Origin: Actinomycetota bacterium
GTDB taxonomy: Bacteria > Actinomycetota > CADDZG01 > JAHWKV01
NCBI GenBank assembly: GCA_046262935.1
Contig: JBHELT010000083.1
Span: forward strand, 5,360-69,359
DNA: 64,000 bases
Direction of reading: 5' to 3'
Shown here: one piece after another, positions 15,779 to 31,016 of the stretch
Numbering within the stretch: the first letter of the stretch is position 1
Layout: each line of letters begins with the position of its first letter
Program-made: the position numbers and the translations under genes
The notes under the pieces: model-generated
Databases searched by the model: none
Told to the model about the DNA's origin: nothing
The model's input: the letters and a program-made list of their open reading frames with translations, nothing else

Positions 15779-18058
15779 TCAGACGAGGCTCTTGTCTGGT
15801 TCGGGCGATAGATGAGATTCAAACGTTATCGAAGGCAGCAGCCGGTCAAGCCATTTGGGCATCCACCAGTTGAGGTCTCCCAGCAATCGCATCGTCGCTG
15901 GCACCAGCACGATCCTTATGATGGTTGCATCGAGGAACACCGCCGCGGCCAGCCCAAAACCCATGGCCTTGATGGGGATGAGCCTTGCAAGAGCGAATGC
16001 GCCGAACACCGTAACCATCACCGCCGCAGCACTAGTGATTATGCGGGCAGTGTGTTCCAGTCCCCAACCAACGGCTTCTGTGTTGTCTTTGGTCTTTAGG
16101 TACTCCTCCCGGATCCTTGCCAGAAGGAACACCTCGTAGTCCATCGACAAGCCGAACAAGATACAGAACAAGAACAACGGCAAGAACGATTCGACGATCC
16201 CTTCTGACTTGAATCCGAGAAGGGTTTGTCCATGCCCCTGTTGGAAGACGAAAACAACAAGACCATAAGCGGCCAGCACCGACGCTAGGTTCATCAAGAT
16301 CGCTTTCAATGGAAGAAGGATGCTTCTGAGGAACAGCATGAGAACGATGAACGAAAGCACCAACACCAAACCTACAACCGAAGGCAGGGCCCCGGTTACC
16401 TCCTCGTTGATGTCGTGGTTCAGGGCCGGGTCCCCACCAACGGCGATCTTCAGCGAAGGAAAGTTTCTCGCGATGGTTCCGCGGAGCCGGTTGATCAACG
16501 ATTGCACCTCGGCCGAATTTGGTTGATGTTTACTCACCAGGGTGAGGGTGGTCGACCTACTGTCTTTGGCGATCATCGAAAAAGCGAATGGAGAAAGGCG
16601 CGGATCTCGAAGCGCCTGCTGGGCTTCTTGCTCCGAGACTCCAGGAACCAAAGTGGCGATCGACGTTACGCTTGCAACTTCCTTGTCCGAGGCAAGTCTG
16701 TCGCTCAATGCGAAGATGTCCTTGAAGGCCGGCCCGGTTACCAGTTGGTCCGCCTTTACGACAAGAACGATAGGCCCGATCTGACCGGAGCCGAAGGCGC
16801 TAGCAGTTAGTTCAAGTGCCCGGCGCGGCCCCGACGATGCCGGCAATATCGAAGGGCCAGATGATCCAAGTCGAAGCGACCTAACGGGTGAGGCGAGCAA
16901 CGCGATAATCGTGATCGAGATGATCAAGGGTGCGACGGGACGTCGCATGATGAAGTGCGCCCAGCGCCGCCACATGCCGCCGGTTTCGCCCCCCGCCGTT
17001 CTGCGACTGAAACTGAGCGCGTTCACGCCTTTGCCCAATACCGCGAGCAATGCAGGAAGCAGGGTCAGAGCTGCGGCCCCGGCGAAGAACACGGCGATCA
17101 TCGATCCGGCTCCCATCGAGCGGAAAGCTGGCAGCTTCACGAGCAAGGTTCCTGAAAGGGCGACGACAACGGTAAGAGCCGATACGAAGACTGCCTTTCC
17201 GCTAGTGGCGATGGCCTCTGCGATCGCATCGTTGCGATCTCGGCCAGCACGGGACTCTTCCCGATAACGAGTCAAGATGAACAATGAATAATCGATACCA
17301 ACACCGATGCCGATCATCGAAGCGATGTTTTGGGTGAAAAGGCTCACAGTCGTAGCCGATGCAAGCAGTGATATGAGTCCGAACGAAACGAAGAGGCTGA
17401 TGAGCGCGAGCACCAGTGGCACGCCGGCTGCCACCACCGACGCGAATGCGATCACCAAGATGACCAAGGTGATGGGAAACGCAACCTTCTCGGCGCGCTC
17501 CAGGTCATGGGTAGTCGTCTTAGAGAACTCGGAGTAGAACGGCCCTCCCCCAGTCAATAGCACCTCGACGCCCGACCCCCTCGAAGCATCGTCGACGGCT
17601 CTTTGTAGAGCATCGGTGTGCTTCAGTACTTCGTCCTGAGACTCGGACAGGCTTGCAGTCGCGATGGCGGTGTGACCATCCTTTGATACCGATCTTTGCG
17701 GAGTTGCGAATGGATCTGTGACCGATGCAACACCACGTCCCTTTCGCAGCGCCTGGATCGAAGCCGCCACGACCTGTTTGAAACGCGCCTCGGAGGCGTC
17801 GAGGGTTTGCGAATGGAAAACCACGAGGTCGTTGAACTGATGTTGGGCAGTGAAGTCCTTCGCCAGCGACTGCTTGACCTGGTCGGATTGTGAACCCGCC
17901 ACTTCGAAGCCCCCTTGCGATAAGCGGTCTTGAAGTTTTGCGGCTTGCGGACCAACGGCCCCGATCGCAATGATCCAGATCGCAAGCACGATCCAGCGCT
18001 TGCTAGCACACCAACTTCCCAGCCGATAAAAGAAACTGCGATCGCCCGATGTGTTCAT
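15779..18058 (-). CDS. MMPL family (RND superfamily) transporter
   Basis: 759 aa with 12 TM helices in two 6-TM blocks and two extracytoplasmic loops. N-terminus FFYRLGSWCASKRWIVLAIW is typical of MmpL proteins. Confidence 0.9.
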   Translation of the reverse strand: MNTSGDRSFFYRLGSWCASKRWIVLAIWIIAIGAVGPQAAKLQDRLSQGGFEVAGSQSDQVKQSLAKDFTAQHQFNDLVVFHSQTLDASEARFKQVVAASIQALRKGRGVASVTDPFATPQRSVSKDGHTAIATASLSESQDEVLKHTDALQRAVDDASRGSGVEVLLTGGGPFYSEFSKTTTHDLERAEKVAFPITLVILVIAFASVVAAGVPLVLALISLFVSFGLISLLASATTVSLFTQNIASMIGIGVGIDYSLFILTRYREESRAGRDRNDAIAEAIATSGKAVFVSALTVVVALSGTLLVKLPAFRSMGAGSMIAVFFAGAAALTLLPALLAVLGKGVNALSFSRRTAGGETGGMWRRWAHFIMRRPVAPLIISITIIALLASPVRSLRLGSSGPSILPASSGPRRALELTASAFGSGQIGPIVLVVKADQLVTGPAFKDIFALSDRLASDKEVASVTSIATLVPGVSEQEAQQALRDPRLSPFAFSMIAKDSRSTTLTLVSKHQPNSAEVQSLINRLRGTIARNFPSLKIAVGGDPALNHDINEEVTGALPSVVGLVLVLSFIVLMLFLRSILLPLKAILMNLASVLAAYGLVVFVFQQGHGQTLLGFKSEGIVESFLPLFLFCILFGLSMDYEVFLLARIREEYLKTKDNTEAVGWGLEHTARIITSAAAVMVTVFGAFALARLIPIKAMGFGLAAAVFLDATIIRIVLVPATMRLLGDLNWWMPKWLDRLLPSITFESHLSPEPDKSLV

Positions 18059-18250
18059 CGCGTCTTAGCCTTCACTGGATCCCCCTTACGTGCGAATATC
18101 AACCCACAAGAGCATATGCGTGTTACCCTTGCTGTACAGGCAACGAGGTTGCCTCGTGGGTTTTCTCCCTTGTTTGCTCCTATCGGCGTTCTCGGGTGAT
18201 CAACCCTCTTGAGAAACAGCCCCCGCCCAAAGAGGCGGAAGGAGGAACAT

Positions 18251-19443
18251 TGAGTACCAGGAGTTTCGCGGAACTAGGCGCGTCCAAACGCACGGTCGAG
18301 GCACTAGAGGCCCGCGACATGAAGCATGCATTCGATATCCAAGCACTCGTCATCCCAGACGCGATGCAGGGCCGCGACGTGCTTGCCAAGAGCAGAACTG
18401 GGTCCGGAAAGACCCTGGCCTTCGCAGTGCCAATCGTGGAATTGATCAAGCCAGCCGACCCTAGACCGAGCGCATTGGTGTTGGTCCCAACACGAGAGCT
18501 GGCAACCCAGGTGACGCAGGAATTTCAGCACATAGCGAAAGCTAACGGCCTGAAAGTAGCAGTTGCCTACGGGGGCGTTGGGCTTCAAGACCAGGCTCGA
18601 TTGGCATCGAAGAGTCACATCTTGATCGCCACTCCCGGAAGACTCGAAGACTTAGCCGACCGCAAGATGATCAACCTCGACCGCGTCAGGATCCTCATCC
18701 TTGACGAAGCGGATCGCATGCTCGACATGGGCTTCCAACCACAAGTCGACCGAATCGTTCGCAGGATCAAAGGCCCCCGACAAACCATGTTCTTCTCGGC
18801 CACCCTCGACGGTCGCGTTGGTCAACTCGCCACTTCTTACACGAAGGACGCAGTTCTACGCGAAGTCGACTCGCCCAAGTTGACGGTCGAAGAGGTGGAG
18901 CATGTTTTCACGGCGGTAACCGCAGGAGACAAGATCGGCGCTTTGGTCGATGTCCTCAGGAAAGATCGCGAGCACGCCCTGGTTTTCGTGAGAACAAAAA
19001 GAGGCGCCGACCGGTTGGTTCTTAAACTCAAGACCCATGGTGTTCCAGCAGTCGCTATGCATGGAGACATGTCTCAAGCCGCCCGCGAACGTTCCTGGTC
19101 CAAGTTCCAGTCGGGCAGAGCCAATGTCTTGGTTGCGACCGATGTTGCAGCACGAGGGCTCGACCTCGATCGCATAAGTCATGTGATCAATTTCGACCCT
19201 CCGGAAGACGAGAAGGCCTATGTCCACCGCGTCGGAAGAACTGCGAGAGCAGGGCGAAGTGGCTCGGGAATCACGCTTGTTACACCCGAACAGAACGGCG
19301 ACGTTGGGCGGATCGCGGCAAGGCTCGACCTCAATGAGCAGTTCGAAAAGGATGGACTCAAGGTCCCAGCCCCGGCGATCGCATTCACTAGTGGACGCGG
19401 ACGCAAGTCGATGATGGGCAGGCGCCCGAGGAGAAGGTTCTAG
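18251..19443 (+). CDS. DEAD-box ATP-dependent RNA helicase
   Basis: TTG start at 18251 preceded by GGAGGA. Motifs: Q-motif, AKSRTGSGKT, DEAD, SAT, HRVGRTARAG. The upstream 190 nt (18059-18250) form a long structured 5' leader. Confidence 0.9.
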
Positions 19444-19456
19444 TTCTCCAAAAGGG

Positions 19457-22400
19457 CTAGAAGACTCCTACGAGCGGCTTCCAATCCTTGACACCAAGGC
19501 GGCTTGCGATCTGTTCGGCACGGGCTTCAGCACCAGGTACGCCGATCCCAAAGTGGATACTGACCGCCATCGCTAAGCCTTCTTCATAGAGCGACTTAGA
19601 TTCGATAGCGGTTGCGATCGCCGACCTGACGGCCTCTTTCGAGCGAGCATAGTCACAGCTTTTCGCATGGACCGTGGCCGACAAGCGATCGATCATCGAC
19701 AGCTGCGCTGGACTCAGACCCTTACGATCAGATCCCAGAAGATCGGGCGAGGATCCTTCGAATACCTCCGCCTCGGCCTGCCAAAGATGGCACTGCAGCG
19801 TCAGCCACTCCGAGCCCAAGGCAACCGACCTTTGTTCGGCTTCCTTAAGCATCTCAAGGCCCTCGTCGGGCCGCCCGCCGCGGGCCGCTGCCCTTCCCTT
19901 ATTACTGGTCGCAAGCGCGATGCCAACTTCGAATCTCGATGGCCTCCAACCGTCGAGCGCGTCTTGGAACAAGTTTTCGGCTTCGGCCAATCTCGCCTGA
20001 TCGGAATAGATCTCACCGATGTTATTGGCTATCGTCGCTGTACCGGTTACGTCACCCGAACGTATCCGCACGTCCTTACTGCGTTCGTAATACGAAAGAG
20101 CATCGGTCCATCTGCCTTGATCGTAAGCATCGGCGCCGAGATTGTTGAGAACCCATCCCAACTGCCTCAAGTCCCCGATCTGTTCGTAGATAAGCAGCGG
20201 CATCTCACTGAACTTCCCCGCTTCGGGGTCCCCCAGTGCGCCGTAGATAGCTTGCAGGAGACTATGCGCGTGAGCCAGCCCGGGACGATCGCCTGCTCGT
20301 TCTGCAACTTCGGCGGCTTGTTTTGCGATCGGGATACTTCGCTTCAAGTCGCCTCGCAACCGGACGATATTCGCCCGCCCCACTAAGAACCGGGTCCTCA
20401 ACATAGGATCGTCGCCATGTCGGTCGAGGAGCCCGAGCCCGGTCCCCCAATCGCGCATAGCAGAATCGAGTCTGCCTAGCCGCAGTTCTATCTCGCCGAG
20501 CTGTCGCAGTATCCCGGCTTTCGTCAGCGGATCGGTTGCGAGACGTCGCGCCTTTTTGTAGTAACCGATCGCCTCTTCATAAAGCCCGCTGAACTCTGAG
20601 ACCTTGCCTAAGTCATCGAGTAAGTCGATCACCTGCGAGGTGGATACATCGGGTATGCGACGGCTAGCTTCCAAGGCTCGTTTATAAAAGGTGGCAGCTT
20701 CCGTGTTGGCATAGCGCGACTGGGCCCTCTTGCCCGCGGCGAGACTGTATCGCCAGGCCTTCAGGTGCTCGCCAGCGGCGAAGAAATGGAGTGACAACAT
20801 GTCTTCGGAGTCTTCGTCGTCGCTGGCGGTTGCAAGCATCTCGCTTTCGATGAGAGTTCCCAGCGACGCATGTAGCTGCCTTCGAGACTTGAACGACAGA
20901 CCTTCATAGGCAACTTCGCGAAACAGATCGTGGCGGAACCTGATCTTGGAGTCCTCGGGAACCAGGAAGTATCCGAGGCCACGAGTTATCTCGACTTTAT
21001 GGTCACGACCCAACCGGTGGGACTCATCTACTTGGCGAAGCAGATCGGATTCGAATATCGGCCCTAGCACCGAGGCAACTCTAAGCACCCTTCGCTCTTG
21101 CCTCGAAAGTCTGTCGACCCGAGAGGCGATCATGGCTTCGAGGCTCTCGGGTAATTCGCCGCCGTCGCTTCCAGAGCCTTCTGACTCGATAAGTTCCCGC
21201 AGGAACAGAGGGTTTCCTCCAGACCTGCGAGCGAGTTCCGATATGCGGTGCTGACTGAGCAGCAGCGATCGGCCAGCTTCCTTAGCCATCGCCTTCATCG
21301 CATCGAAGCCGAGCGGCGCGAGTTCCATCTCGAGATCCAATGTGCCAGGGCTGGCTATGTATCCCCGGTCTGGGTACCGGCGCGCGATGATCACCATCCA
21401 CCTTCGCGCCCGGTTGGTTACAACCATGTGATCGATGAGTTCAGAACTCGCCTCATCGGCCCAGTGAGCGTCCTCTATCAGGAAGAGCAACGGACCGGCC
21501 GTAAGAGACTCGATCAGATCCACAACGGCTTCGTGGAGTTTGCCTTTACGAAACGCAGGGTCGAGCGCGTCGGCCTCGGGCGTGGGATCCACCACGGCAC
21601 CTACGACCGCAGCCACCAGTGGCAGCCATCGATGCAAGTGAGGTGCCGAAGTACTGACGACTTCATCGAGAACTTTCCCAGCAGGGGCCGCCCCCAGGTC
21701 AGCGCCTATACCGCACAACTCGCGAACGACCGACGTGAAGATGGAATAAGGCGTTGAAGATCGATATTGGAATGCCTGAGTGGTGATGATGTTCATTCCT
21801 GAAATCTGGCTCACGAACTCCTCGATCAATCGAGACTTACCCAGACCGGCATCACCTGATATCTGCACCGATTGGCCCCCTTGGTGCAGTGCAGCCAGGC
21901 GCTCGTGAAGGCGAGATAGTTCCTCCTGTCTCCCATGAAGAGGGGTCTGCTCCCTGGCCCTGCCTCTTGGATCGTTGCTGATGAACCGGATGTCTACGGG
22001 AGTAACCGCCGCTGACTTTCCTTTCGGCAGGAAGGGTTCGGTTCGCTCGAACTCCACCCGCACGTCCAAGCGGTCGAGCACAGACTCTGTCGTCAGCACT
22101 TGTCCCACGTGAGCCTGTTGCATCAAACGCGCAGCCAGGTTCACTGCATCGCCCATGACTGTGTAAGTCCTACGGAATTCAGTCCCTATCTCACCTGCGA
22201 AAACATGGCCCCGGTTGGCCCCGATCTTCACCGGGAGTTCTGAAGCGTCCGAGATCGTTCGCAGTGCCCTCATCAGACGCTCTTCATCATTGCCGGTTGC
22301 AACAGGAGCGCCTGCGGTCAATATGACCTTGGCGCCGCGCGGATATACGTCCGTTCCCAGGAAACAAACGTCGAAGGAATCGCATGTCCCCTGCACCATC

Positions 22401-23347
22401 GAGATGAATCGCTCAAGGTCCACGGCAAATGCCTCTGGCTGTGCACCGGTAATCATCGTATCGATATCCGTGAAGCAAACGAAACCGATCGACACTCTGC
22501 GATGTTCAGCCTCCGCGTCACCAGATGACACCTGTGCCCTAACGCGTTCGGGAAGGAACGTATACAGATCTATTGGCATCACTGGATCTTCATTCGGTCT
22601 CGATCCAACCAGGGAACGATTGAACTTTTTGAGGATGAAGCCTGCGCCCTTTTGCTCTCCAACAAGACCGTGCTTTTCGAGAAGGACGGCCACCGCCTCC
22701 GACATCACCACCTCACCCGCCTCGGCGATAGTTTCCATGTCCCCGGTGATGGTTGAACCCTCGCCGGCCACTATCAGTTCGCGGTGTGATCCTCCAACCA
22801 AGAAAAAGTCGAACGGCCCTGTGTGCAAACCCGCACTCATGCGTAGTCGAACCGGTCCCGCTGAGGTTTCGACCCGGCCGATGCGCCCTATCTGTCTTTG
22901 CATGCGACTCACCACCTCGGTTGCATGCATCAGATGTTGGTCGCCCCTGAAGAACAACAGCAAGGCATCGCCGCCGAACTTGAGAAGACCACCCCCGTGA
23001 AGGTGGGCAGTCTCCAGAAGGCTAGAAAACGTGGAATGGATCGCGCCTGTGACTTCCTCGGCCCCGACCTTGCCCTTGGATGCGAGCTTCTCCGACATCT
23101 TGGTGAAGCCGGAAAGGTCGGCGAAGATCATCGACCCTTCCAGGCGTCGCCATAGCTTGCCGGGTTCCTCCTGATCCCAGGCGAGGACCAATCTTGGGAT
23201 GAAGGGGACTAAAGCGTCTTCTGGCACGCTTCTATTAAAACCCCCACCGGGCGATGGGGTACAGGGCAACGCCTGGTTCTCTATTTGAACTTGAAATCGA
23301 CGAAGTGGGTTTCGACGCCATTGAACGTTACGAGCAACCTGCGGCAC
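19457..23347 (-). CDS. multidomain regulator: two tandem class III adenylyl/guanylyl cyclase homology domains + P-loop NTPase (AAA_16/STAND-like) + C-terminal TPR repeats
   Basis: Cyclase domain 1 (IFADLSGFT...FGGDALLLFF) and cyclase domain 2 (IGFVCFTDI...YTVMGDAVNLAARL). Walker A GDAGLGKSRL. Multiple TPR-like helices follow. The true start is possibly the GTG at 23227, which would remove the 67-bp overlap with the upstream gene. Confidence 0.8.
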   Translation of the reverse strand: MPQVARNVQWRRNPLRRFQVQIENQALPCTPSPGGGFNRSVPEDALVPFIPRLVLAWDQEEPGKLWRRLEGSMIFADLSGFTKMSEKLASKGKVGAEEVTGAIHSTFSSLLETAHLHGGGLLKFGGDALLLFFRGDQHLMHATEVVSRMQRQIGRIGRVETSAGPVRLRMSAGLHTGPFDFFLVGGSHRELIVAGEGSTITGDMETIAEAGEVVMSEAVAVLLEKHGLVGEQKGAGFILKKFNRSLVGSRPNEDPVMPIDLYTFLPERVRAQVSSGDAEAEHRRVSIGFVCFTDIDTMITGAQPEAFAVDLERFISMVQGTCDSFDVCFLGTDVYPRGAKVILTAGAPVATGNDEERLMRALRTISDASELPVKIGANRGHVFAGEIGTEFRRTYTVMGDAVNLAARLMQQAHVGQVLTTESVLDRLDVRVEFERTEPFLPKGKSAAVTPVDIRFISNDPRGRAREQTPLHGRQEELSRLHERLAALHQGGQSVQISGDAGLGKSRLIEEFVSQISGMNIITTQAFQYRSSTPYSIFTSVVRELCGIGADLGAAPAGKVLDEVVSTSAPHLHRWLPLVAAVVGAVVDPTPEADALDPAFRKGKLHEAVVDLIESLTAGPLLFLIEDAHWADEASSELIDHMVVTNRARRWMVIIARRYPDRGYIASPGTLDLEMELAPLGFDAMKAMAKEAGRSLLLSQHRISELARRSGGNPLFLRELIESEGSGSDGGELPESLEAMIASRVDRLSRQERRVLRVASVLGPIFESDLLRQVDESHRLGRDHKVEITRGLGYFLVPEDSKIRFRHDLFREVAYEGLSFKSRRQLHASLGTLIESEMLATASDDEDSEDMLSLHFFAAGEHLKAWRYSLAAGKRAQSRYANTEAATFYKRALEASRRIPDVSTSQVIDLLDDLGKVSEFSGLYEEAIGYYKKARRLATDPLTKAGILRQLGEIELRLGRLDSAMRDWGTGLGLLDRHGDDPMLRTRFLVGRANIVRLRGDLKRSIPIAKQAAEVAERAGDRPGLAHAHSLLQAIYGALGDPEAGKFSEMPLLIYEQIGDLRQLGWVLNNLGADAYDQGRWTDALSYYERSKDVRIRSGDVTGTATIANNIGEIYSDQARLAEAENLFQDALDGWRPSRFEVGIALATSNKGRAAARGGRPDEGLEMLKEAEQRSVALGSEWLTLQCHLWQAEAEVFEGSSPDLLGSDRKGLSPAQLSMIDRLSATVHAKSCDYARSKEAVRSAIATAIESKSLYEEGLAMAVSIHFGIGVPGAEARAEQIASRLGVKDWKPLVGVF

Positions 23348-26300
23348 AGGCCCGACCAGCCTGTCTTCGGTGTATCAACCACGTCGAGGTACTGGCCCGA
23401 GACCGAGTCGTACTTCAGGCCGATCCCCAAGGAGATGACCGTTGGATCGCTAAGCAGCGATTCGGTCCGGTTCGAATCGCAGCCGATAGCTCTCCATTCG
23501 AGACCAAGGTCCGACTGCTTTAGGCCGTCGTAAGACTTTCCGCTCTGGTCACGCAGGAACCACTTGAGTGGCACGGCCTGGCCCCCCTGCACGGTATTTA
23601 TCTGTCCCGAGGTGCTGTCGGTGCCGGTCACGGGAGTCTTGAAACCATCGAACAGAGAGTGCACGTAATACACGGCGTCTTTGATGGTCACATTGCCCGC
23701 CGCATCTGCAGCCTTCACCTGAAAGATGTTCTTACCGGGCTTGGAGGTATCGATCGCCGTTGACGGTGAGACCGTGCCAACGCACGAGTCGATCGGGGAC
23801 TCGACATCCGAACACGAGTACGAAGCGTTGACAGTCTGACCTAGAGTCAACACCGTTCCGTTGATAGGCGAATCGATCGTTATCTTCGGAGGGTTAGAGT
23901 CGCCGAACTCGCTCGACTTGTTGTATGAACGAGAGACATTGCCATGATTGTCAACAGCCTGTGCGCTGAATTTCAATGAAGGACTACTGGCAGCAGCCGA
24001 TCCGCGGAAGCGGTCCGTGCCGGGCAATTGAGTCAACTTGATGTATCTAAGAGTCCCGCCTTCACTCAGCAATATGGAAGCTCCGGCGATGTCCGTGTGG
24101 TCCGACGGCGTTTCGTCTCTAAGTTCCACCTCGAAGGTTGCGACATAGTTCCCCGGGGTCCCCGAGACGGTTCCTTCGACCCGGTTGAATATGGCCGCCA
24201 GGTTGTCGCTGGTCGATGATGAAAGGTAAAAGACCCTCGTGTTCAATGAGGTGAACTTCCGCATGGTACCTATCACATGACCGTTGGACAAACCAGAAGA
24301 ACGGAACTGAGTAGTCAGCACGTTCAGCCGCTGACGCAGACCCTGAGGCGTTAAGAACGAACTCACATTGGCCGCGATCGGTGTCGAGAGATCATCGAAT
24401 TGAGGTTCGGGTGCGAACCGCGCCTCGTCGACAACCGGGACCGAGATCACAGGGTCGAAACCTGTCAGGGTTTGATAAGTTCCGCCCGTGATGTATACGC
24501 CCTTCGCGACCATCCCATTGACGGTGGCGTCTTGTCCGGTCCTTGCAGCGATCGGTTGATAAAGAGCTTCCTGCGGCTGCTGGTTATCGGCTTGCAAGAT
24601 CGTTCCATCGGGCGTTGTCGTTGATGAATAACTCGGGTTCAGGTCGATACTTGCGGCCTGCAGCGATGTGTCAGGGTCGTTCATGACCACAGGCGGCGTG
24701 GACGCCGGCGTAGTTGGAGCGACATCGAGATGCCACATCGGCAGTCCCCACAAAGTGAGCTCTTCGGAAGATTTCTTCTGAACCGGATCATAGAGATCCT
24801 GCTCGCCGAAGTAGGTGTTCTTGGCGAACTCGAGCGCCTTGCCCGTGCTGTACCCGTTTTTCAGATTCTGCGCGAACAGGACCATGAGGCGCTCAGACGC
24901 TGCGATGGTGTATTTGCCCCCATAGCCGTGTCCGTAGTTAGCGACCAAACCCACTGCTCCTTTCGAAGCTGTGAATTGCGCCCAGTCGTTCAACCTCCTG
25001 GCTTGATCGACCGTAGGCGAAGTGAGCAGTACGTCCTCTGGGTTCGCTCCGAGGTTGCAACCCATGGCGAAGATCAGCGAACCGCTGAGATCTGTAGTTG
25101 AAAGGTCAGCGGTTGACAGCGTTTCTGCCAGGTTCTTGTTGGCATCGCCATTGGCCGACAGGATCTTCGTGTGATTCGCGTGCCCGTTAGGCGAGATGAC
25201 CCGGCCTGTGCCGAAGATCGGCTTCAGCTGCGAGGCCGTCCAGGTGTCGTTGATAAGGGTGGTTGGACCACCGAGGATCTGCTGAAGCGACGTCGCCATG
25301 TCTGACATGAAGTCATATCCGGAGCTTTGCGTCGTGCCAAGTTGCAAGATCCCGTTGGCATTCTTGAAACGGCTTATCCCACCGACGATCTGCGATTCAG
25401 TTTCGCCGAGCCGGCCGATCGCCAGATCAGGGACGTAATGGTAATAGCCGAGCCACGGCACCGGGTTGAAGTCGGCGTAAGGAGCGTCTGACATCACATA
25501 AGAGTCTGCGAAGCTCGCATAGAACGCATTGTTCTTGGCCCCGCCGTCGGTCCGCGTTGTAAACGCAGCCTCTTGGGTGTAATCGAGTTCATTGAAGTAA
25601 GTGTTCAGGTCGGGGATACGCGCTTGCGGCACGATGCGATCAGTTCCGGCGATCACCATGCTCTCGAGCGAGTTAGTTCCGTTCGGTATCAAACCTCTCA
25701 CCAGCGCGTTGATCGAGCGGGTGACAGTATTGGCCTTCTCCGGATCGCACGGATCCTGATCCCATGCTGTATATGCCTGTTGCAGGGCAACTTCGTTCGG
25801 CGTGTCGTTGCGGTCGAGGTTGATGACTTGCCCCATCACGTCTGAGCGATTGATGAACGCTGGATCGCTCAGTGCATTCGCCACGTTGTTCGCGGCAGTT
25901 GACCCATAGCTGTCACCGAACCGCTTCTTGTTGACCAGCACGATCGTCTTGGTCCCCTGGGTCACGATGTTGTTCGCCACCCCAGCCGCTGTCTGGTTGG
26001 GGAATGCGAACGTCGTTGGCGCACATGGGGGTTGTGGGGCGGGGTCGATCACCTGGGCACGCAGGACGGCGGGCTGGTCTGAGGACGCGCTTAGGTACCC
26101 GTTGGCCTGCACTAAGAAGTAGTCGTCGGACGTTAGACCAACGGGCACCGTCACGTCGACCTCTTCTTCGTTCAAAGACCTGCTTGCTGAGATGCCTGCA
26201 ACCGCAAGTCCGCTCTGCAGAGGAACATCTTGCGCGACCTGAGGCTGGGAAGGCTGAGTCGAGCTGTTGACATTAAGGCCTGGGTCCGAAAGAGGCGACC

Positions 26301-28713
26301 CGATGATCGATATATCTCGTAGCGGTGAGCCGATGATCGATATGTCACGCAATGGGGAACCTGCCAAAGACTGGGCAGGACCCGAGTTGGCGGGCAGGTA
26401 AACAACCAGGTCAGCATCGACAGGCAGATGGCTGAGCATGAACCGCACCCGGGTCCCCGCGACGGACTTACCAGATGGCCCAACGGGGACCGGGAGCTTG
26501 AACAGATCGACATCTCCCGGACGCGAGATATGCGTGAAGTAAACGTTGTCGGCCGCCATCGGTGTTGCCGATGCGATCGAATCGTTCGATTCGAAGTTTT
26601 CGACTACGTTCACAGCCGCTCTGCCCGATATCGACTCCGAAAGATCGGGTGCCGCCGTCAACGTAGCTGCCGCACTGAAGGTTCCGAGCTTCCATCCCGG
26701 TCGCGCTTGGAAATCGATCTGGAAGAAACTACCCATGCTTATGGATGTCTGGGTGAGCGTCCATCTAAGTACGTTGCCATCGATGCTCGGATCGCCGAGT
26801 GGCGAGGGCACGCCCGCGCTGGCGTTCTTGATCTGAGCGCTGCCTGGGATATACGAAGAGGTCGCAGGCAGCGTGACGGCCGCGACCGGCGTCGAGTAAG
26901 AACTCGTTCCTGGGTATGCGTAGCTCAGGTGGTACTGAACCGCGTTAGCAGTTGGTCCTGAATATCTGGACAGGTCCTGTAAAGGTACGTCTTCGATCGG
27001 TGTCGAAGCGGCTCCCAGGATCCCGTAAACAACCTCGCCAAGGGAGAATGCATTAAATGATGCAACCGGCGAGCTCCAAACGTTGGTTGAGGTATTCAAC
27101 ACACCGAGGTCGCGGACCTTCGCATTTGCCAGGATGGCGCCGCTTGCAGCGGCACCGGCCAGGTTCTTCGTGCTGTTCGCGTCGCAATCGCCCGGCAGCA
27201 CCTTTGTGCAATCAACTATCGACGCAAGCCTTCCCGCCGTTTGAAGTTCTCCCAACCGGATCGAACCCAGCGGCATGTTCCTAAGTCCAACCGACGAGTC
27301 GAGCCCAGGATGGGCAGGGTCCCCCGCCAGGAGAAAGTCGAGCATCATCGAGCGGGTGAGATTGATATTGCTCATGGCAAGTCCGCTGAGCGGGAAGCCA
27401 CTAACGTCGACACCCGCCAATTCCTGCGCGAATAACGACGCGTCCATACCGCCGAAGCCCGAGCCGCAGTTGGCGAATCCCTGAGCTTCCCATCTCTGAC
27501 AGAAGGTTGGACCCGCAGGCAGGGTTATGTCGCGTGCTCTGACGTTGCCCAACATCCAACCAGCGGCGCTGATCGATCCGAGGCGCGAAGCACTGAAGTC
27601 GATATCTTTGACGGTTACCTTTGCGAGTCCCGGTGGATTAAGTGTTACGACATCTTTTACGGTGATGTTGCTTAGCGTGGCGGCGGCGAGTGCTGAGCCT
27701 GCCAGTACATCGTCTTCCCAGTTGCCTACCAGTCTGGGGAGATCCGGCTTGAGCGGCAGGTCGGACAGAACCATGGTGCTCAGCGCCCCACCAGTTAGTC
27801 CCGACCCGATGATCGAGATGTCACGAAGTGGCGAACCGATGATCGAGATGTCACGAAGTGGCGCCGAGGCCTGTTGCGAAGGGGCACTCGGTTGCGTTGG
27901 GACGTCGGAAACGGGGACCGAACGCGGGCTGGCCCCGATCGAGGGTTGATCAGCAGTCAGGTTGAGACCCGACTGGGGAGGGATCGGGGTGACGTCGGTG
28001 ATGGTGATCGTTCCCCATGATGGGTAGGCGTGATTCGACTGCGGTTGTGAAGCTGTGTCGAGGGTCACGTTGAGGTAGTTGGTTTTAGTTGGGTCGCCGG
28101 GGACGGTGACCGTCTTAGTCCCAGAGGTGTGTTCGATCTGCCCGTCGCCGTAAGAGGTTGCTCCCCAGACGAATCCGAGGCCAGGCAGATCGGTGGTGTT
28201 CAGCGGGTCGGTAAGGCCTAACTGCCAGTAAGGACGCTGCGAAACGCTGACCGAGAATGAATCGTAATATCCCGTGCCGCCGTTGTAAGGGGCGTTGCTG
28301 GACCCAGGTGCGTTGTAGGAATCCCAACTCGAAAGGTCGTAGTTGAAGGTGATGCTGTATGAGCCGCCACTTGGAAGAGCAGCCGCTTCGGAATGCATCG
28401 ATGAGTTCATAGTGCCGCTCTCGGGCCGATCGGCGGTGCCCATCACAACGGTGTTCCCGTCGGCGGATACCTCGGGAGTTTCCGGACATACGTCGCACTT
28501 CGTCCAACTGAGCGTCGGAGTCGCCGCATGCGTTACAGGCAACGGCGACAACTGGAGCATCAACATCGAAAGCACAGCCAAAAGTCCGATGCTACGAAGT
28601 TTGCTGCGCGATGAACGAACCTTCGAAGATGCGAAACGATGCAACACTAGATTCCTCCCCCCAGACGAACGTCTCTGGTGATCTGCGGTGAATGACTGAA
28701 GTCTCTGACGCAC
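23281..28713 (-). CDS. giant secreted multidomain protein (1,810 aa): signal peptide, LRR-like region flanked by SPLRDISIIG tandem repeats, C25 (gingipain)-like cysteine-peptidase candidate domain, C-terminal Ig/PKD-like beta domains
   Basis: N-terminal hydrophobic signal region (LLAVLSMLMLQLSPLPVTHAATP). Two separate tandem arrays of an identical decapeptide. A His...Cys pair in gingipain-like context (ISPNGHANHTKI ... LIFAMGCNLGAN, AIGRL). Repeated LxxLxLxxN-like stretches between the arrays. Confidence 0.75.
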   Translation of the reverse strand: MRQRLQSFTADHQRRSSGGRNLVLHRFASSKVRSSRSKLRSIGLLAVLSMLMLQLSPLPVTHAATPTLSWTKCDVCPETPEVSADGNTVVMGTADRPESGTMNSSMHSEAAALPSGGSYSITFNYDLSSWDSYNAPGSSNAPYNGGTGYYDSFSVSVSQRPYWQLGLTDPLNTTDLPGLGFVWGATSYGDGQIEHTSGTKTVTVPGDPTKTNYLNVTLDTASQPQSNHAYPSWGTITITDVTPIPPQSGLNLTADQPSIGASPRSVPVSDVPTQPSAPSQQASAPLRDISIIGSPLRDISIIGSGLTGGALSTMVLSDLPLKPDLPRLVGNWEDDVLAGSALAAATLSNITVKDVVTLNPPGLAKVTVKDIDFSASRLGSISAAGWMLGNVRARDITLPAGPTFCQRWEAQGFANCGSGFGGMDASLFAQELAGVDVSGFPLSGLAMSNINLTRSMMLDFLLAGDPAHPGLDSSVGLRNMPLGSIRLGELQTAGRLASIVDCTKVLPGDCDANSTKNLAGAAASGAILANAKVRDLGVLNTSTNVWSSPVASFNAFSLGEVVYGILGAASTPIEDVPLQDLSRYSGPTANAVQYHLSYAYPGTSSYSTPVAAVTLPATSSYIPGSAQIKNASAGVPSPLGDPSIDGNVLRWTLTQTSISMGSFFQIDFQARPGWKLGTFSAAATLTAAPDLSESISGRAAVNVVENFESNDSIASATPMAADNVYFTHISRPGDVDLFKLPVPVGPSGKSVAGTRVRFMLSHLPVDADLVVYLPANSGPAQSLAGSPLRDISIIGSPLRDISIIGSPLSDPGLNVNSSTQPSQPQVAQDVPLQSGLAVAGISASRSLNEEEVDVTVPVGLTSDDYFLVQANGYLSASSDQPAVLRAQVIDPAPQPPCAPTTFAFPNQTAAGVANNIVTQGTKTIVLVNKKRFGDSYGSTAANNVANALSDPAFINRSDVMGQVINLDRNDTPNEVALQQAYTAWDQDPCDPEKANTVTRSINALVRGLIPNGTNSLESMVIAGTDRIVPQARIPDLNTYFNELDYTQEAAFTTRTDGGAKNNAFYASFADSYVMSDAPYADFNPVPWLGYYHYVPDLAIGRLGETESQIVGGISRFKNANGILQLGTTQSSGYDFMSDMATSLQQILGGPTTLINDTWTASQLKPIFGTGRVISPNGHANHTKILSANGDANKNLAETLSTADLSTTDLSGSLIFAMGCNLGANPEDVLLTSPTVDQARRLNDWAQFTASKGAVGLVANYGHGYGGKYTIAASERLMVLFAQNLKNGYSTGKALEFAKNTYFGEQDLYDPVQKKSSEELTLWGLPMWHLDVAPTTPASTPPVVMNDPDTSLQAASIDLNPSYSSTTTPDGTILQADNQQPQEALYQPIAARTGQDATVNGMVAKGVYITGGTYQTLTGFDPVISVPVVDEARFAPEPQFDDLSTPIAANVSSFLTPQGLRQRLNVLTTQFRSSGLSNGHVIGTMRKFTSLNTRVFYLSSSTSDNLAAIFNRVEGTVSGTPGNYVATFEVELRDETPSDHTDIAGASILLSEGGTLRYIKLTQLPGTDRFRGSAAASSPSLKFSAQAVDNHGNVSRSYNKSSEFGDSNPPKITIDSPINGTVLTLGQTVNASYSCSDVESPIDSCVGTVSPSTAIDTSKPGKNIFQVKAADAAGNVTIKDAVYYVHSLFDGFKTPVTGTDSTSGQINTVQGGQAVPLKWFLRDQSGKSYDGLKQSDLGLEWRAIGCDSNRTESLLSDPTVISLGIGLKYDSVSGQYLDVVDTPKTGWSGLCRRLLVTFNGVETHFVDFKFK
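26300..26359 (-). repeat. tandem 30-bp coding repeat (x2 plus partial) encoding SPLRDISIIG (array 2)
   Basis: Read from the sequence. The two copies differ from each other and from array 1 only at synonymous positions. Confidence 0.8.
27806..27865 (-). repeat. perfect tandem 30-bp coding repeat (x2 plus partial) encoding SPLRDISIIG (array 1)
   Basis: Read from the sequence. Copies 27806-27835 and 27836-27865 are identical except for the last 2 nt. Confidence 0.85.
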
Positions 28714-28871: not shown

Positions 28872-29387
28872 TCAGGCGAGCTCGGTCAGCTTTTGAAGGT
28901 CCCCTAGATGGGCCAAGGTATGGGAAAAGGGACCATCCGGCCCCCCGGTCGCTCCGCCAAGGACGTTACTTAGAGTGCTCACCGAGCCATCGACCCGGGT
29001 TGCCGGAGCGGCCCACTCCTCATCGCTCAAAGTCCTGATGATCTGGACCAACGTCGCGTTCGTTTCCCGGAAGGAGCTAAGGGCTTCGGACCACGGCCTA
29101 CCGGACTTCTCGGCAACTTTGCGTTTGTTGAATGCATCTAAACTCGTCTCATCGGTCACCTGCTGGGCATCGGCGGAAACCGACCCGCCCAGCCAGGATT
29201 GATATGCGTCGATCGCTACCTCTTCCCACGTCTGCAGATGTCCCAACAGATCGTTGGCCGACCAATCACCTCCGCCGATAGTCGAGGGCCTGTTGGCAAG
29301 GTCCTCCGGTAATGAAGTGGCGATCTTCAGAACTTTCTCGGCCGAGGACGCCAAGGTTTCGGCCACCTGGAGACGCTGCATCTTCAT
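28872..29387 (-). CDS. DinB/MDMPI_N-like (mycothiol-dependent maleylpyruvate isomerase N-terminal domain) family protein
   Basis: 171 aa, predicted helical, with the DLLGHL...W motif typical of DinB_2/MDMPI_N domains. Confidence 0.55.
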   Translation of the reverse strand: MKMQRLQVAETLASSAEKVLKIATSLPEDLANRPSTIGGGDWSANDLLGHLQTWEEVAIDAYQSWLGGSVSADAQQVTDETSLDAFNKRKVAEKSGRPWSEALSSFRETNATLVQIIRTLSDEEWAAPATRVDGSVSTLSNVLGGATGGPDGPFSHTLAHLGDLQKLTELA

Positions 29388-29435: not shown

Positions 29436-31016
29436 GTGGATAATCGCCCGATGACATCTACGACCGTTCCAATCGACCTCAAAAGCAAGGCTGGGCGATT
29501 CACCCTGATCGCCACCATCCTCGCATCGGCGATCGTGTTCCTTGATTCAACCGTTGTGACGGTGGCGATCCCATCGATACAACGAGATTTCTCGGCGGCG
29601 TTCTCGTCGATGCAATGGGTCGGCGATGCGTACTTCGTGACGCTTACCGCTTTCCTTTTGATCGGGGGTTCTTACGGCGACCTCTTCGGTCGAAAACGAG
29701 CCTTCGTGATAGGGCTGGTCAGCTTTACCCTAGGTTCTATCCTTTGCGGTTCGGCCCCCAGCATCGGTTTCCTGATCGCAGCCAGAGCTATCCAGGGACT
29801 CGGCGGGGCGCTGCTCATACCTTCGAGCTTGGCGATCATCACGGCCACATTCGGTGAGGAGCAGCGTGGCAGGGCGATCGGGATATGGGCCGCTACCTCA
29901 GGTCTGGGGGCCGCGGTGGGCCCATTGGTCGGCGGCGCCCTGATCGACGCATTTTCGTGGAGATGGATCTTCTATATCAATATCCCGCTGGCCATTGTGA
30001 CCTTGCTGTTCGCACGGGCACAGATGCCCGAAACTCGCGACGAATCTGCGGTCCAACATCTTTCAACAGCAAGCGGAGCCGCCGCGGCCGTCGCCCTTGG
30101 AGGCGGTGCTTACTGCCTCATCCAGGGCCCCGTTGATGGATTCACGAACCCGCGAGTCTTGATCGCATCAGTCGTGGCGGTGATCTCGGCTTTCGCATAT
30201 TGGTATGTCGAGCGCAGGGCGAAACAGCCGATGATCCCTCACGGGGTGTTTCGAAACATACGTTTCACGTCTGTGCAGGTCGCCACGCTCACCATCTACT
30301 TCGCGCTGAATGGCGTATTTGTTTTCATCATCCTTGGCGCTCAACAGATCCACCACCTTTCTAGCCTCAAGGCGGGGGCCTCTCTCATTCCTATCACCTC
30401 ATTGTTGCTGCTGTTATCGCCAACTGTCGGTAAGGTCGCGGGGAAGATCGGTCCCAAGATCCCCATCGCGGCGGGCGCGTTGCTGTGTGCCATCGGGGTC
30501 GCGATCGCGGCGTTTTGGGGACCCCACGAAAGCTATTTCACACTATTGCTGCCGGCACTCGTCGTTTTCGGAGTGGGTCTTAGTTTCATAGTCGCCCCGA
30601 TCACCGGGGCAGCCGTTGCATCCTTGGGGCAGAGACATGCAGGGGTGGCTTCCGCTGTGAACAACGCGGTCTCGAGGCTGGCGGGTCTTCTGGCTTTCGC
30701 GATCTTGCCTGGGATCTCGCTTGTGGCATTCACCCCGGCATTGCATCAGCAGATCAGTACCATCGACATCTCTTCAAAGCAGAAGGCTTCGCTCCTGGTT
30801 AACGTCGACAAGCAAGGTGGACTCGAAGCCCCAAAGGGACTTTCTTCCGATTCTGCCAAACAGGTAACAGACGCGATCTCGGAGGCCTTCTATCGCGGGT
30901 ATCGCCTGACGCTGTTCTGCGTAGCGGGCGTCATGCTGATCGGCGGGATCATCGCCCTTTTGTTCGTCGGCAAACCGGATGAAAGTTTGATGCAAAACCA
31001 AACGCCGCCCCTATAG
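29436..31016 (+). CDS. MFS transporter, DHA2 (EmrB/QacA, 14-TMS) drug:H+ antiporter family
   Basis: 526 aa with 14 predicted TM helices. MFS motif A-like GRKRAF in the first cytoplasmic loop after TM2. Confidence 0.9.
   Translation: MDNRPMTSTTVPIDLKSKAGRFTLIATILASAIVFLDSTVVTVAIPSIQRDFSAAFSSMQWVGDAYFVTLTAFLLIGGSYGDLFGRKRAFVIGLVSFTLGSILCGSAPSIGFLIAARAIQGLGGALLIPSSLAIITATFGEEQRGRAIGIWAATSGLGAAVGPLVGGALIDAFSWRWIFYINIPLAIVTLLFARAQMPETRDESAVQHLSTASGAAAAVALGGGAYCLIQGPVDGFTNPRVLIASVVAVISAFAYWYVERRAKQPMIPHGVFRNIRFTSVQVATLTIYFALNGVFVFIILGAQQIHHLSSLKAGASLIPITSLLLLLSPTVGKVAGKIGPKIPIAAGALLCAIGVAIAAFWGPHESYFTLLLPALVVFGVGLSFIVAPITGAAVASLGQRHAGVASAVNNAVSRLAGLLAFAILPGISLVAFTPALHQQISTIDISSKQKASLLVNVDKQGGLEAPKGLSSDSAKQVTDAISEAFYRGYRLTLFCVAGVMLIGGIIALLFVGKPDESLMQNQTPPL

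Follow-up and report, generated by a model that had tools for sequence, protein, structure and literature searches.

Matched tandem peptide arrays at conserved sites in a family of giant gingipain-like proteins from Actinomycetota and Chloroflexota

The window analyzed here, a 64,000-nucleotide stretch of contig JBHELT010000083.1 from an Actinomycetota bacterium, contains on its reverse strand an open reading frame (ORF) of 1,810 aa (23281 to 28713, GTG start), as the original prediction from the sequence had stated, whose product carries the same decapeptide in tandem at two distant sites. We found that these two arrays are very probably this protein's copies of a family-wide module, in which one lineage-specific unit of the form (P)-hydrophobic-x-x-(hydrophobic/Ser/Thr) is repeated at fixed sites. 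The proteins form a large family of giant, probably secreted gingipain-like proteins, uncharacterized so far, with an unusual mode of evolution: the copies are identical as peptides, their codons are close to random, the copy number is frozen between orthologs, and the unit is replaced everywhere between lineages. For annotation, this means that the low-complexity stretches of these proteins are their most constrained part and not junk. All features of the giant protein described below lie on the reverse strand.

Matched peptide arrays across the family

Array 1 (27805 to 27864; aa 284 to 303; site S1) reads APLRDISIIG followed by SPLRDISIIG, with a degenerate third unit, SGLTGG, on its 3' side (27787 to 27804). 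Array 2 (26299 to 26358; aa 786 to 805; site PPC loop) consists of two copies of SPLRDISIIG and is followed on its 3' side by a partial third unit, SPLSDPG (26278 to 26298), which fits the family motif P-[LV]-x-D-x-G. Two arrays of the same peptide had thus been correctly predicted, with coordinates 1 nt off, but the description of array 1 as a perfect 30-bp duplication does not hold: its copies agree at 28 of 30 nt (96% match in Tandem Repeats Finder), and one of the two differences, GCG versus TCG, gives A or S at residue 1. The copies of array 2 differ at 7 nt, every one of them synonymous, and copies from different arrays differ at 5 to 8 nt. The synonymous divergence noted earlier is therefore present, but it does not reach nearly every third position, as codons 7 to 9 (TCG ATC ATC) are the same in all four copies. 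At least 12 changes are needed to account for the four copies, 11 of them synonymous and 1 (A/S) at the array edge, a proportion with a P of ~8e-6 under random placement with ~28% synonymous sites. No further copy of the motif turned up when the window was translated in all six frames. The 11 nt TCGATCATCGG (codons 7 to 10, S-I-I-G), which include GATC and a near-palindrome, are unchanged across the four copies (27805 to 27815, 27835 to 27845, 26299 to 26309, and 26329 to 26339) while other codons vary; this sameness may be a simple codon bias for ATC.

A HMMER scan of 1.84 billion cluster representatives (clusters at 50% identity) retrieved 1,761 relatives at E ≤ 1e-3 and 697 at E ≤ 1e-30, and a scan of one genome per species located at least 542 loci. 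The best 80 loci come nearly all from metagenome-assembled genomes (MAGs) of Actinomycetota and Chloroflexota, and the hosts of the family are almost all uncultured soil and sediment members of these two phyla. No Pfam or NCBIfam model spans the family core, and no relevant paper was found in the literature on the motif, the PxKF domain, or the combination of a C25 peptidase with tandem pentapeptides. The common core comprises a 5-residue-periodic region, an Ig-like domain, a PPC-like domain, and a gingipain-fold protease. Two loci have other settings: one lies in a MAG of the Pirellulales (Planctomycetota; L029), which may be due to horizontal transfer or to faulty binning, and one in the cultured actinomycete Nocardioides marmorisolisilvae KIS18-7 (L038), so that a cultured carrier, which would make experiments possible, appears to exist.

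Of the 150 top-scoring family representatives, about 145 contain short tandem peptide arrays. When sites were assigned by mapping each protein onto the core profile, the arrays were found to cluster at three conserved places: S1, before W332; MID, equivalent to aa 438 to 473 of the query; and the PPC loop. Array 1 aligns with the first array of the homologs, directly upstream of the invariant W332, and homologous arrays sit in the same PPC loop in the 61 proteins that also have an upstream array. In 59 of these 61, the upstream and PPC-loop consensus units are at least 80% identical, and in most they are identical. The unit of the arrays also covaries with units that stand alone, both within the periodic region and where the PPC loop ends, and the PPC-loop arrays are followed by the conserved P-[LV]-x-D-x-G motif. 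As many as ~50 copies of a 5-residue unit occur in one protein, distributed over several distant sites.

The usual unit is a pentapeptide with P at position 1, followed by L/V/I/M/F, G/R/S/N/A/D, S/G/A/N, and I/S/V/T, the hydrophobic position 2 being its most conserved residue; 186 proteins together supplied at least 70 distinct units. Analysis of 475 arrays revealed that about 80% both start and end cleanly in the P-hydrophobic-x-x-x register and that their flanks stay in phase as x-hydrophobic-x-x-x. The query decapeptide can be read as the unit PLRDI plus a spacer pentapeptide, SIIGS, each 20-aa array thus amounting to four pentapeptide lengths. Superperiods of 10 and 15 residues are also found in other members (e.g., PLRSV-DLAST), and homolog P0098 has PLQDI-SIAGI in the same arrangement as PLRDI-SIIGS of the query, the two agreeing at 7 of 10 residues. 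At 43% and 40% identity, the two closest relatives likewise carry exactly one pair of decapeptides at S1 and another in the PPC loop, within well-conserved flanks; their decapeptides, SGLDSLNILG and SPLDTGTVVI, are each matched across the protein's own two arrays.

Outside this core, the ends of the proteins differ by lineage. Some members (surveyed in P0048, P0056, P0082, P0086, P0129, P0131, and P0153) have C-terminal 9-residue repeats of the GGxGxD type (RTX-like), and others have, at either terminus, PxKF domains, PD40/TolB propellers, a parallel β-helix, delta-60 repeats, or NIDO domains. Judged from these arrangements, the conserved core appears to act as a cassette.

Selection on the repeated units

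Across 66 loci, copies with the same unit differ by 0.545 nt per codon when adjacent, 0.514 at a lag of two, 0.522 when farther apart within an array, and 0.554 when they lie in different arrays, against 0.656 for a random synonymous draw. Synonymous differences among copies thus reach ~83% of the random expectation, and in 80 loci the copies are nearly as diverged as random codon draws from their own ORF. Even the Ser at one unit position is drawn from both codon families, TCN and AGY. The scrambling of the codons led us to drop any role of the repeats at the level of DNA or RNA.

Comparison of 10 ortholog pairs revealed that the arrays are 96 to 100% identical and free of indels, against 57 to 87% identity in the remainder of the protein, and so upheld the earlier expectation that orthologs would conserve the repeats more strongly than the flanking sequence. 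This comparison is a cleaner test than a permissive in-register pN/pS over the arrays, the median of which was 0.32 and which is noisy, spacer pentapeptides and register errors being included in it. The copy-number layout is kept as well, for example, as [12,5,2,4] in three species at 65 to 90% core identity, and is conserved down to ~60% core identity. At 50 to 65% core identity, the unit differs in every copy and the layout persists. Coordinated swaps of this kind are seen between PIPNS[7,5,3,1] and PVPNS[7,5,5,1], between PLRGS[9,3] and PLRVS[9,3], and between PISSV and PVSSI, both [10,7,1].

These data establish that purifying selection holds the copies within a protein identical as peptides, with an occasional replacement that affects all copies together. 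The idea that selection acts on the exact decapeptide accordingly survives in part. That the peptide and not the DNA is selected is borne out by the 11 of 12 synonymous changes in the query, by its relatives, which are alike in this respect, and by the 66 loci; that one exact peptide is selected is contradicted by the closest relatives, which bear other, internally matched decapeptides at the same two sites. What is selected, as far as the sequences indicate, is uniformity within a protein together with the family pattern (P/x)-hydrophobic-x-x-x and not one particular peptide.

At the DNA level, some turnover is visible. The order of AGC- and TCG-bearing units was found to be reshuffled between orthologs at 91% core identity while the copy number stays at 7/5-6/3/1, which argues for unit-level DNA turnover or recombination under a constraint on number. 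Alternation of these two Ser codons, which differ at all three bases, at unit position 5 is a feature of the arrays of L024, L066, L036, L047, and L079. In the two closest relatives, L081 and L082, copies from different arrays differ at 5 to 9 nt with 0 to 1 amino acid change. An asymmetry between sites is common to these relatives and the query: the S1 pair differs at 2 nt in the query and at 0 to 2 nt in L081 and L082, and the PPC-loop pair differs at 7 nt in the query and at 6 and 8 nt in the two relatives. This suggests that homogenization or turnover is ongoing at S1 only. Simple recent slippage had been considered less likely in the original prediction; the near-identity of the array 1 copies, taken together with the unit-level turnover seen in the family, makes recent slippage or conversion possible for array 1.

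Domain architecture of the giant protein

The protein is identical to the product of an ORF in the NCBI record of an Actinomycetota MAG, where it is named "PxKF domain-containing protein" and is started at 28647, 22 codons 3' of the GTG at 28713, giving 1,788 aa. From its N terminus, it comprises a signal-like segment, an N-terminal domain of unknown type, array 1, the 5-residue-periodic region, the Ig-like domain, and the PPC-like domain with array 2 in a loop; its C-terminal half comprises the gingipain-fold protease, β-sandwich domains, and the PxKF domain. Reading of the N-terminal sequence by eye points to a probable Sec signal peptide at aa 23 to 64 (28522 to 28647), with a basic n-region, the hydrophobic core LLAVLSMLMLQL, and then THA/AT. 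The giant protein is probably secreted, the two grounds for this being that N terminus (KLRSIGLLAVLSMLMLQLSPLPVTHA/AT) and the conserved Cys pairs described below.

The 5-residue-periodic region (aa 304 to 590; 26944 to 27804) is delineated by autocorrelation, AlphaFold2 modeling, covarying columns, and conserved Cys residues. Its hydrophobicity autocorrelation is 0.25, 0.18, and 0.12 at lags of 5, 10, and 15, its covarying columns are spaced with a period of 5, and it holds degenerate units such as RLGSI at residue 378 and PLGSI at residue 481. AlphaFold2 models it with a predicted local distance difference test (pLDDT) score of 70 to 89 as short turns with a period of ~5 residues; the stretch of the query equivalent to the MID arrays of its homologs, which lies in this region, is modeled as ordered in the same manner (pLDDT 77 to 86). 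The Cys pairs C405/C416 (FCQRWEAQGFANC) and C502/C510 (DCTKVLPGDC), encoded at nt ~27466 to 27501 and ~27184 to 27210, respectively, are invariant or nearly so across the family; by their conservation, they are probably disulfides, which would fit an extracytoplasmic location.

The sequence between the arrays had been described as a leucine-rich repeat (LRR)-like region of ~500 aa. The 482 aa in question are not one region, being made up of ~290 aa with a 5-residue period, the Ig-like domain, and the first half of the PPC-like domain, and the measured periods of 5, 10, and 15 are not the 20 to 30 residues of LRRs (LxxLxLxxN), for which Pfam returned no match in this protein. The LRR identification was consequently abandoned.

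The Ig-like (DUF11/pilin-like) β-sandwich (aa 592 to 704; 26602 to 26940) was recognized from the strands of the AlphaFold2 model and from Foldseek matches to pilins, and an NCBIfam DUF11-type repeat matched in homolog P0098 supports the call. It is followed by a β-sandwich (aa 712 to 885; 26059 to 26580) with the fold of PPC and collagen-binding domains of collagenases, interrupted by a loop of ~64 aa (aa 773 to 836) between the strands DADLVVY and VAGISASR. The Pfam PPC model (PF04151) does not match aa 571 to 900 of the query even at E ≤ 10; it scores 28.4 bits in homolog P0004 (cutoff, 25.9) and 23.7 in P0003. Known PPC/collagen-binding domains differ from the present version, which is N terminal to the protease and carries a repeat-bearing loop insertion of 60 to 100 aa.

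The catalytic domain (~aa 905 to 1340; 24694 to 26001) is a clan CD cysteine peptidase with a caspase-like α/β fold resembling that of gingipain. Its predicted catalytic residues are His1178 (NGHANH; 25180 to 25182) and Cys1219 (AMGCNLG; 25057 to 25059), and the His...Cys dyad, in clan CD order, is unchanged in 155 of 155 family proteins. A Pfam scan of the whole 1,810-aa protein gave no match, and a scan of aa 901 to 1420 alone detected Peptidase_C25 (PF01364) at aa 1177 to 1304 with 26.5 bits against a gathering score of 23, vindicating the earlier "C25-like" assignment; homologs P0002 and P0004 score 33.3 and 26.3 bits. The C-terminal PxKF domain (aa 1689 to 1810; 23284 to 23649) is matched by NCBIfam NF038114 (58.3 bits; cutoff, 35) and is likewise present in homologs P0013, P0021, and P0032.

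Sequence searches against solved gingipains, with the whole protein and with a profile of the C25 domain for RgpB, returned no match. The gingipains RgpB and Kgp (MEROPS C25, clan CD) also differ in that the present hosts are Actinomycetota and Chloroflexota and the upstream module is PPC-like and not a gingipain prodomain; matched peptide arrays and a periodic region are not among the features of gingipains, whose own trait is a strict Arg or Lys at P1. We regard the family as a new version of known kinds, namely, repeat-bearing secreted clan CD peptidases and pentapeptide-type repeats.

Candidate roles of the arrays and the linked cyclase gene

The uniformity of the units within a protein implies either that the copies depend on one another, as in packing, or that a reader coevolves with them, and either would be new for a gingipain-type protease. 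Our preference, a tentative one, is for a reading in which the units, rather than being protease cleavage sites, form the rungs of a solenoid-like scaffold with pentapeptide periodicity. Its interior would be packed with the conserved hydrophobic residue of position 2 and often with that of position 5, positions 3 and 4 would make a strictly periodic, lineage-specific surface, and uniformity would be imposed both by rung-on-rung packing and because the surface must be regular and the length constant. The PPC-loop array would serve as a matching segment, docked on this stack or lengthening it, in one molecule or between molecules; were it to stack with the periodic region, it would have to bear a matching unit. 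We rank this reading first because it accounts for periodicity that continues in phase, for constant array length, for the matching between arrays, and for the covariation of single units within the periodic region. It is further favored by the extension of the 5-residue hydrophobic period outside the arrays, by the ordered turn pattern of ~5-residue period modeled for the MID-equivalent stretch of the query, by the fit of SPLRD to four of five positions of the pentapeptide-repeat consensus (three of five for ISIIG), and by a search of the PDB in which the family profile matched pentapeptide-repeat proteins only.

Several observations weigh against a scaffold. AlphaFold2 gives a pLDDT of <50 for both query arrays, which fall within its only two long stretches of low confidence (model residues 1 to 40 and 510 to 559), and for every perfect array of homolog P0098. 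A synthetic (SPLRG)16 finds the same PDB proteins as the family profile and (IPLGS)16 finds none, so that the likeness is one of pattern only; Pfam pentapeptide models remain below threshold, and Pro is absent from position 2 of the published consensus. It is not obvious why packing by itself should call for identity at positions 3 and 4, which are exposed, units with a net charge of +1 (PLRGS) or -1 (PLDAI) per 5 residues would stack like charges, and some family members have no arrays.

The pentapeptide repeat proteins (Rfr fold; PF00805) are one point of comparison, sharing the 5-residue period and a central Leu, and 20 aa would equal one coil of their right-handed quadrilateral β-helix. 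However, they require at least eight contiguous consensus repeats, the query arrays having four pentapeptide lengths each, and AlphaFold2 builds no confident helix on the arrays. Pfam and NCBIfam pentapeptide models do not match the query, and the arrays of homologs score 19.6 and 19.7 bits against cutoffs of 38 and 26.4, or 19 against 125 for the NCBIfam Alr5209 model. Membership in this family was rejected on the basis of these subthreshold scores and of the PDB matches reproduced by (SPLRG)16. To our knowledge, the known pentapeptide repeat proteins do not keep all of their units identical.

A somewhat unlikely alternative to the scaffold is that the arrays are multicopy recognition sites, on flexible segments, for the protein's own gingipain-fold protease, with a role in autoprocessing or latency. 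Cleavage at S1 would free the variable N-terminal head, and the PPC-loop array, when cut or occupied, would control the prodomain-like PPC module directly before the catalytic domain; the (Pro)-hydrophobic pair would be P2-P1, as in the Leu-specific MARTX cysteine protease domain (CPD). The unchanged catalytic dyad noted above, the conservation of the hydrophobic position 2, and the P-[LV]-x-D-x-G motif after the PPC-loop arrays are compatible with this reading, as are a protease that is surely active and the modeling of the query and homolog arrays as exposed low-confidence segments between confident domains. Clan CD offers precedents by analogy: gingipains become active through proteolysis and have an N-terminal prodomain that inhibits them, and the review table of the same source gives Leu as P1 for MARTX-CPD (PMC4357240); a report on proRgpB describes inhibition by the propeptide through an inhibitory loop (PMC13366090). 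Cleavage sites, however, need neither a fixed copy number nor in-phase flanks, many units (e.g., PLGGI and PLGAI) have no Arg, Lys, Asp, or Asn and lack every P1 residue classical for clan CD, and single units inside the confidently modeled periodic region covary with the arrays too. Moreover, no column of the protease domain tracks the unit type beyond clades, though unit positions 3 to 5 are held identical. Covariation with an S1 pocket was sought by mutual information between unit positions 2 to 5 and all core columns, which returned only other unit copies; the C25-domain columns that stood out (ORF residues 1049, 1065, and 1069) follow clades and not units and were dropped as evidence.

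The MARTX toxins (C80) resemble the present proteins in being giant secreted multidomain proteins with a clan CD protease in cis, which in their case cuts at Leu in unstructured interdomain linkers. They differ in clan CD family, the present domain being C25-like by fold ranking, and have no repeated identical cleavage motifs; in the family studied here, cleavage is hypothetical.

Less probable still, and in our view doubtful, is multivalent binding, in which the arrays would be identical short linear motifs, comparable to the heptads of the RNA polymerase II C-terminal domain (CTD), for a coevolving domain, another protein, or an extracellular ligand of periodic structure, for instance a polysaccharide or a polymer of the cell wall. 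The extreme conservation of every copy in a lineage-specific sequence, the occurrence of one unit in three structural contexts, and the adjoining PPC-like domain, with the fold of the clostridial collagenase collagen-binding domain, are in line with such a role, as is the probably flexible display of the arrays predicted by the low-confidence models. Against it, aa 270 to 1420 showed no covarying columns beyond the arrays, no candidate reader emerged, and the charge of the unit ranges from +1 to -1 between close relatives.

A further reading involves the gene next to that of the giant protein (longest ORF, 1,296 aa; 19457 to 23347, reverse strand), for which Pfam identifies tandem class III cyclase domains, a STAND/AAA_16 ATPase, and TPR repeats in a product that is cytoplasmic by sequence. 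Taken from the GTG at 23347, this ORF shares 67 nt (23281 to 23347) with the 3' end of the giant ORF, so its real start is probably farther downstream. Of 81 loci, 49 have a homolog of this neighbor beside the giant gene, and the figure is 23 of 29 for loci with at least 3.5 kb on both sides; the orientation of the homolog varies, being mostly divergent upstream and sometimes tandem downstream, as in the window, and in the closest relative, L081, the order is the same, with the neighbor 1 nt downstream. These observations suggest that the two genes form a concrete two-gene module. Scanning with the PADLOC models of antiphage defense gave no match to the giant protein and generic cyclase/TPR matches only for the neighbor. 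The other genes around the pair are ordinary chromosomal ones, encoding a DinB-like protein, MFS and MMPL transporters, and a DEAD-box helicase (28872 to 29387, reverse strand; 29436 to 31016, forward strand; 15779 to 19443), and they are not kept beside the family in other loci.

Given this linkage, the arrays can be pictured, in what we consider an improbable scenario, as precursors of a lineage-specific oligopeptide that is cut out by the protease in cis and sensed by the linked cyclase-STAND-TPR protein. Cleavage would occur after the hydrophobic residue of each unit (Pro-Leu|x), like that by the Leu-specific MARTX protease domain, and would yield identical penta- or decapeptides, RDISIIGSPL in the query and, for example, GSIPL or RGSPL elsewhere, for a cAMP-coupled, pherotype-like signaling in Actinomycetota and Chloroflexota. 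Such a system would explain at once the identical copies, the lineage-specific units, the conserved cleavage dipeptide, the invariant protease, and the conserved neighbor. It would recall RRNPP-like pheromone systems, with their secreted precursor and linked TPR receptor, of which only the genetic linkage to a cyclase-STAND-TPR gene is seen here; a comparison of neighbor TPR and unit covariation had only five same-unit pairs and hence no power.

The least probable explanation, and one we strongly disfavor, is neutral concerted evolution of slippage-prone DNA homogenized by unequal exchange or gene conversion, with a peptide of no specific function: the 2-nt divergence of the array 1 copies (0 to 2 nt in the two relatives), the reshuffled Ser codons, and the change of the unit in all copies together would fit it, but identical peptides at ~83% of random synonymous divergence, arrays that are the most conserved part of the protein with no indels between orthologs, and a layout kept to ~60% core identity do not.

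Perfect peptide repeats with varied codons are known from the Ser-Asp repeats of the staphylococcal Clf/Sdr proteins, the RNA polymerase II CTD heptads, and the NANP repeats of the Plasmodium circumsporozoite protein, in each of which there is one array per protein and the unit is constant across species. The family described here is like them in having identical units with differing codons, including both Ser codon families, and is set apart from them by several distant, matched arrays per protein and by a unit that differs between lineages.

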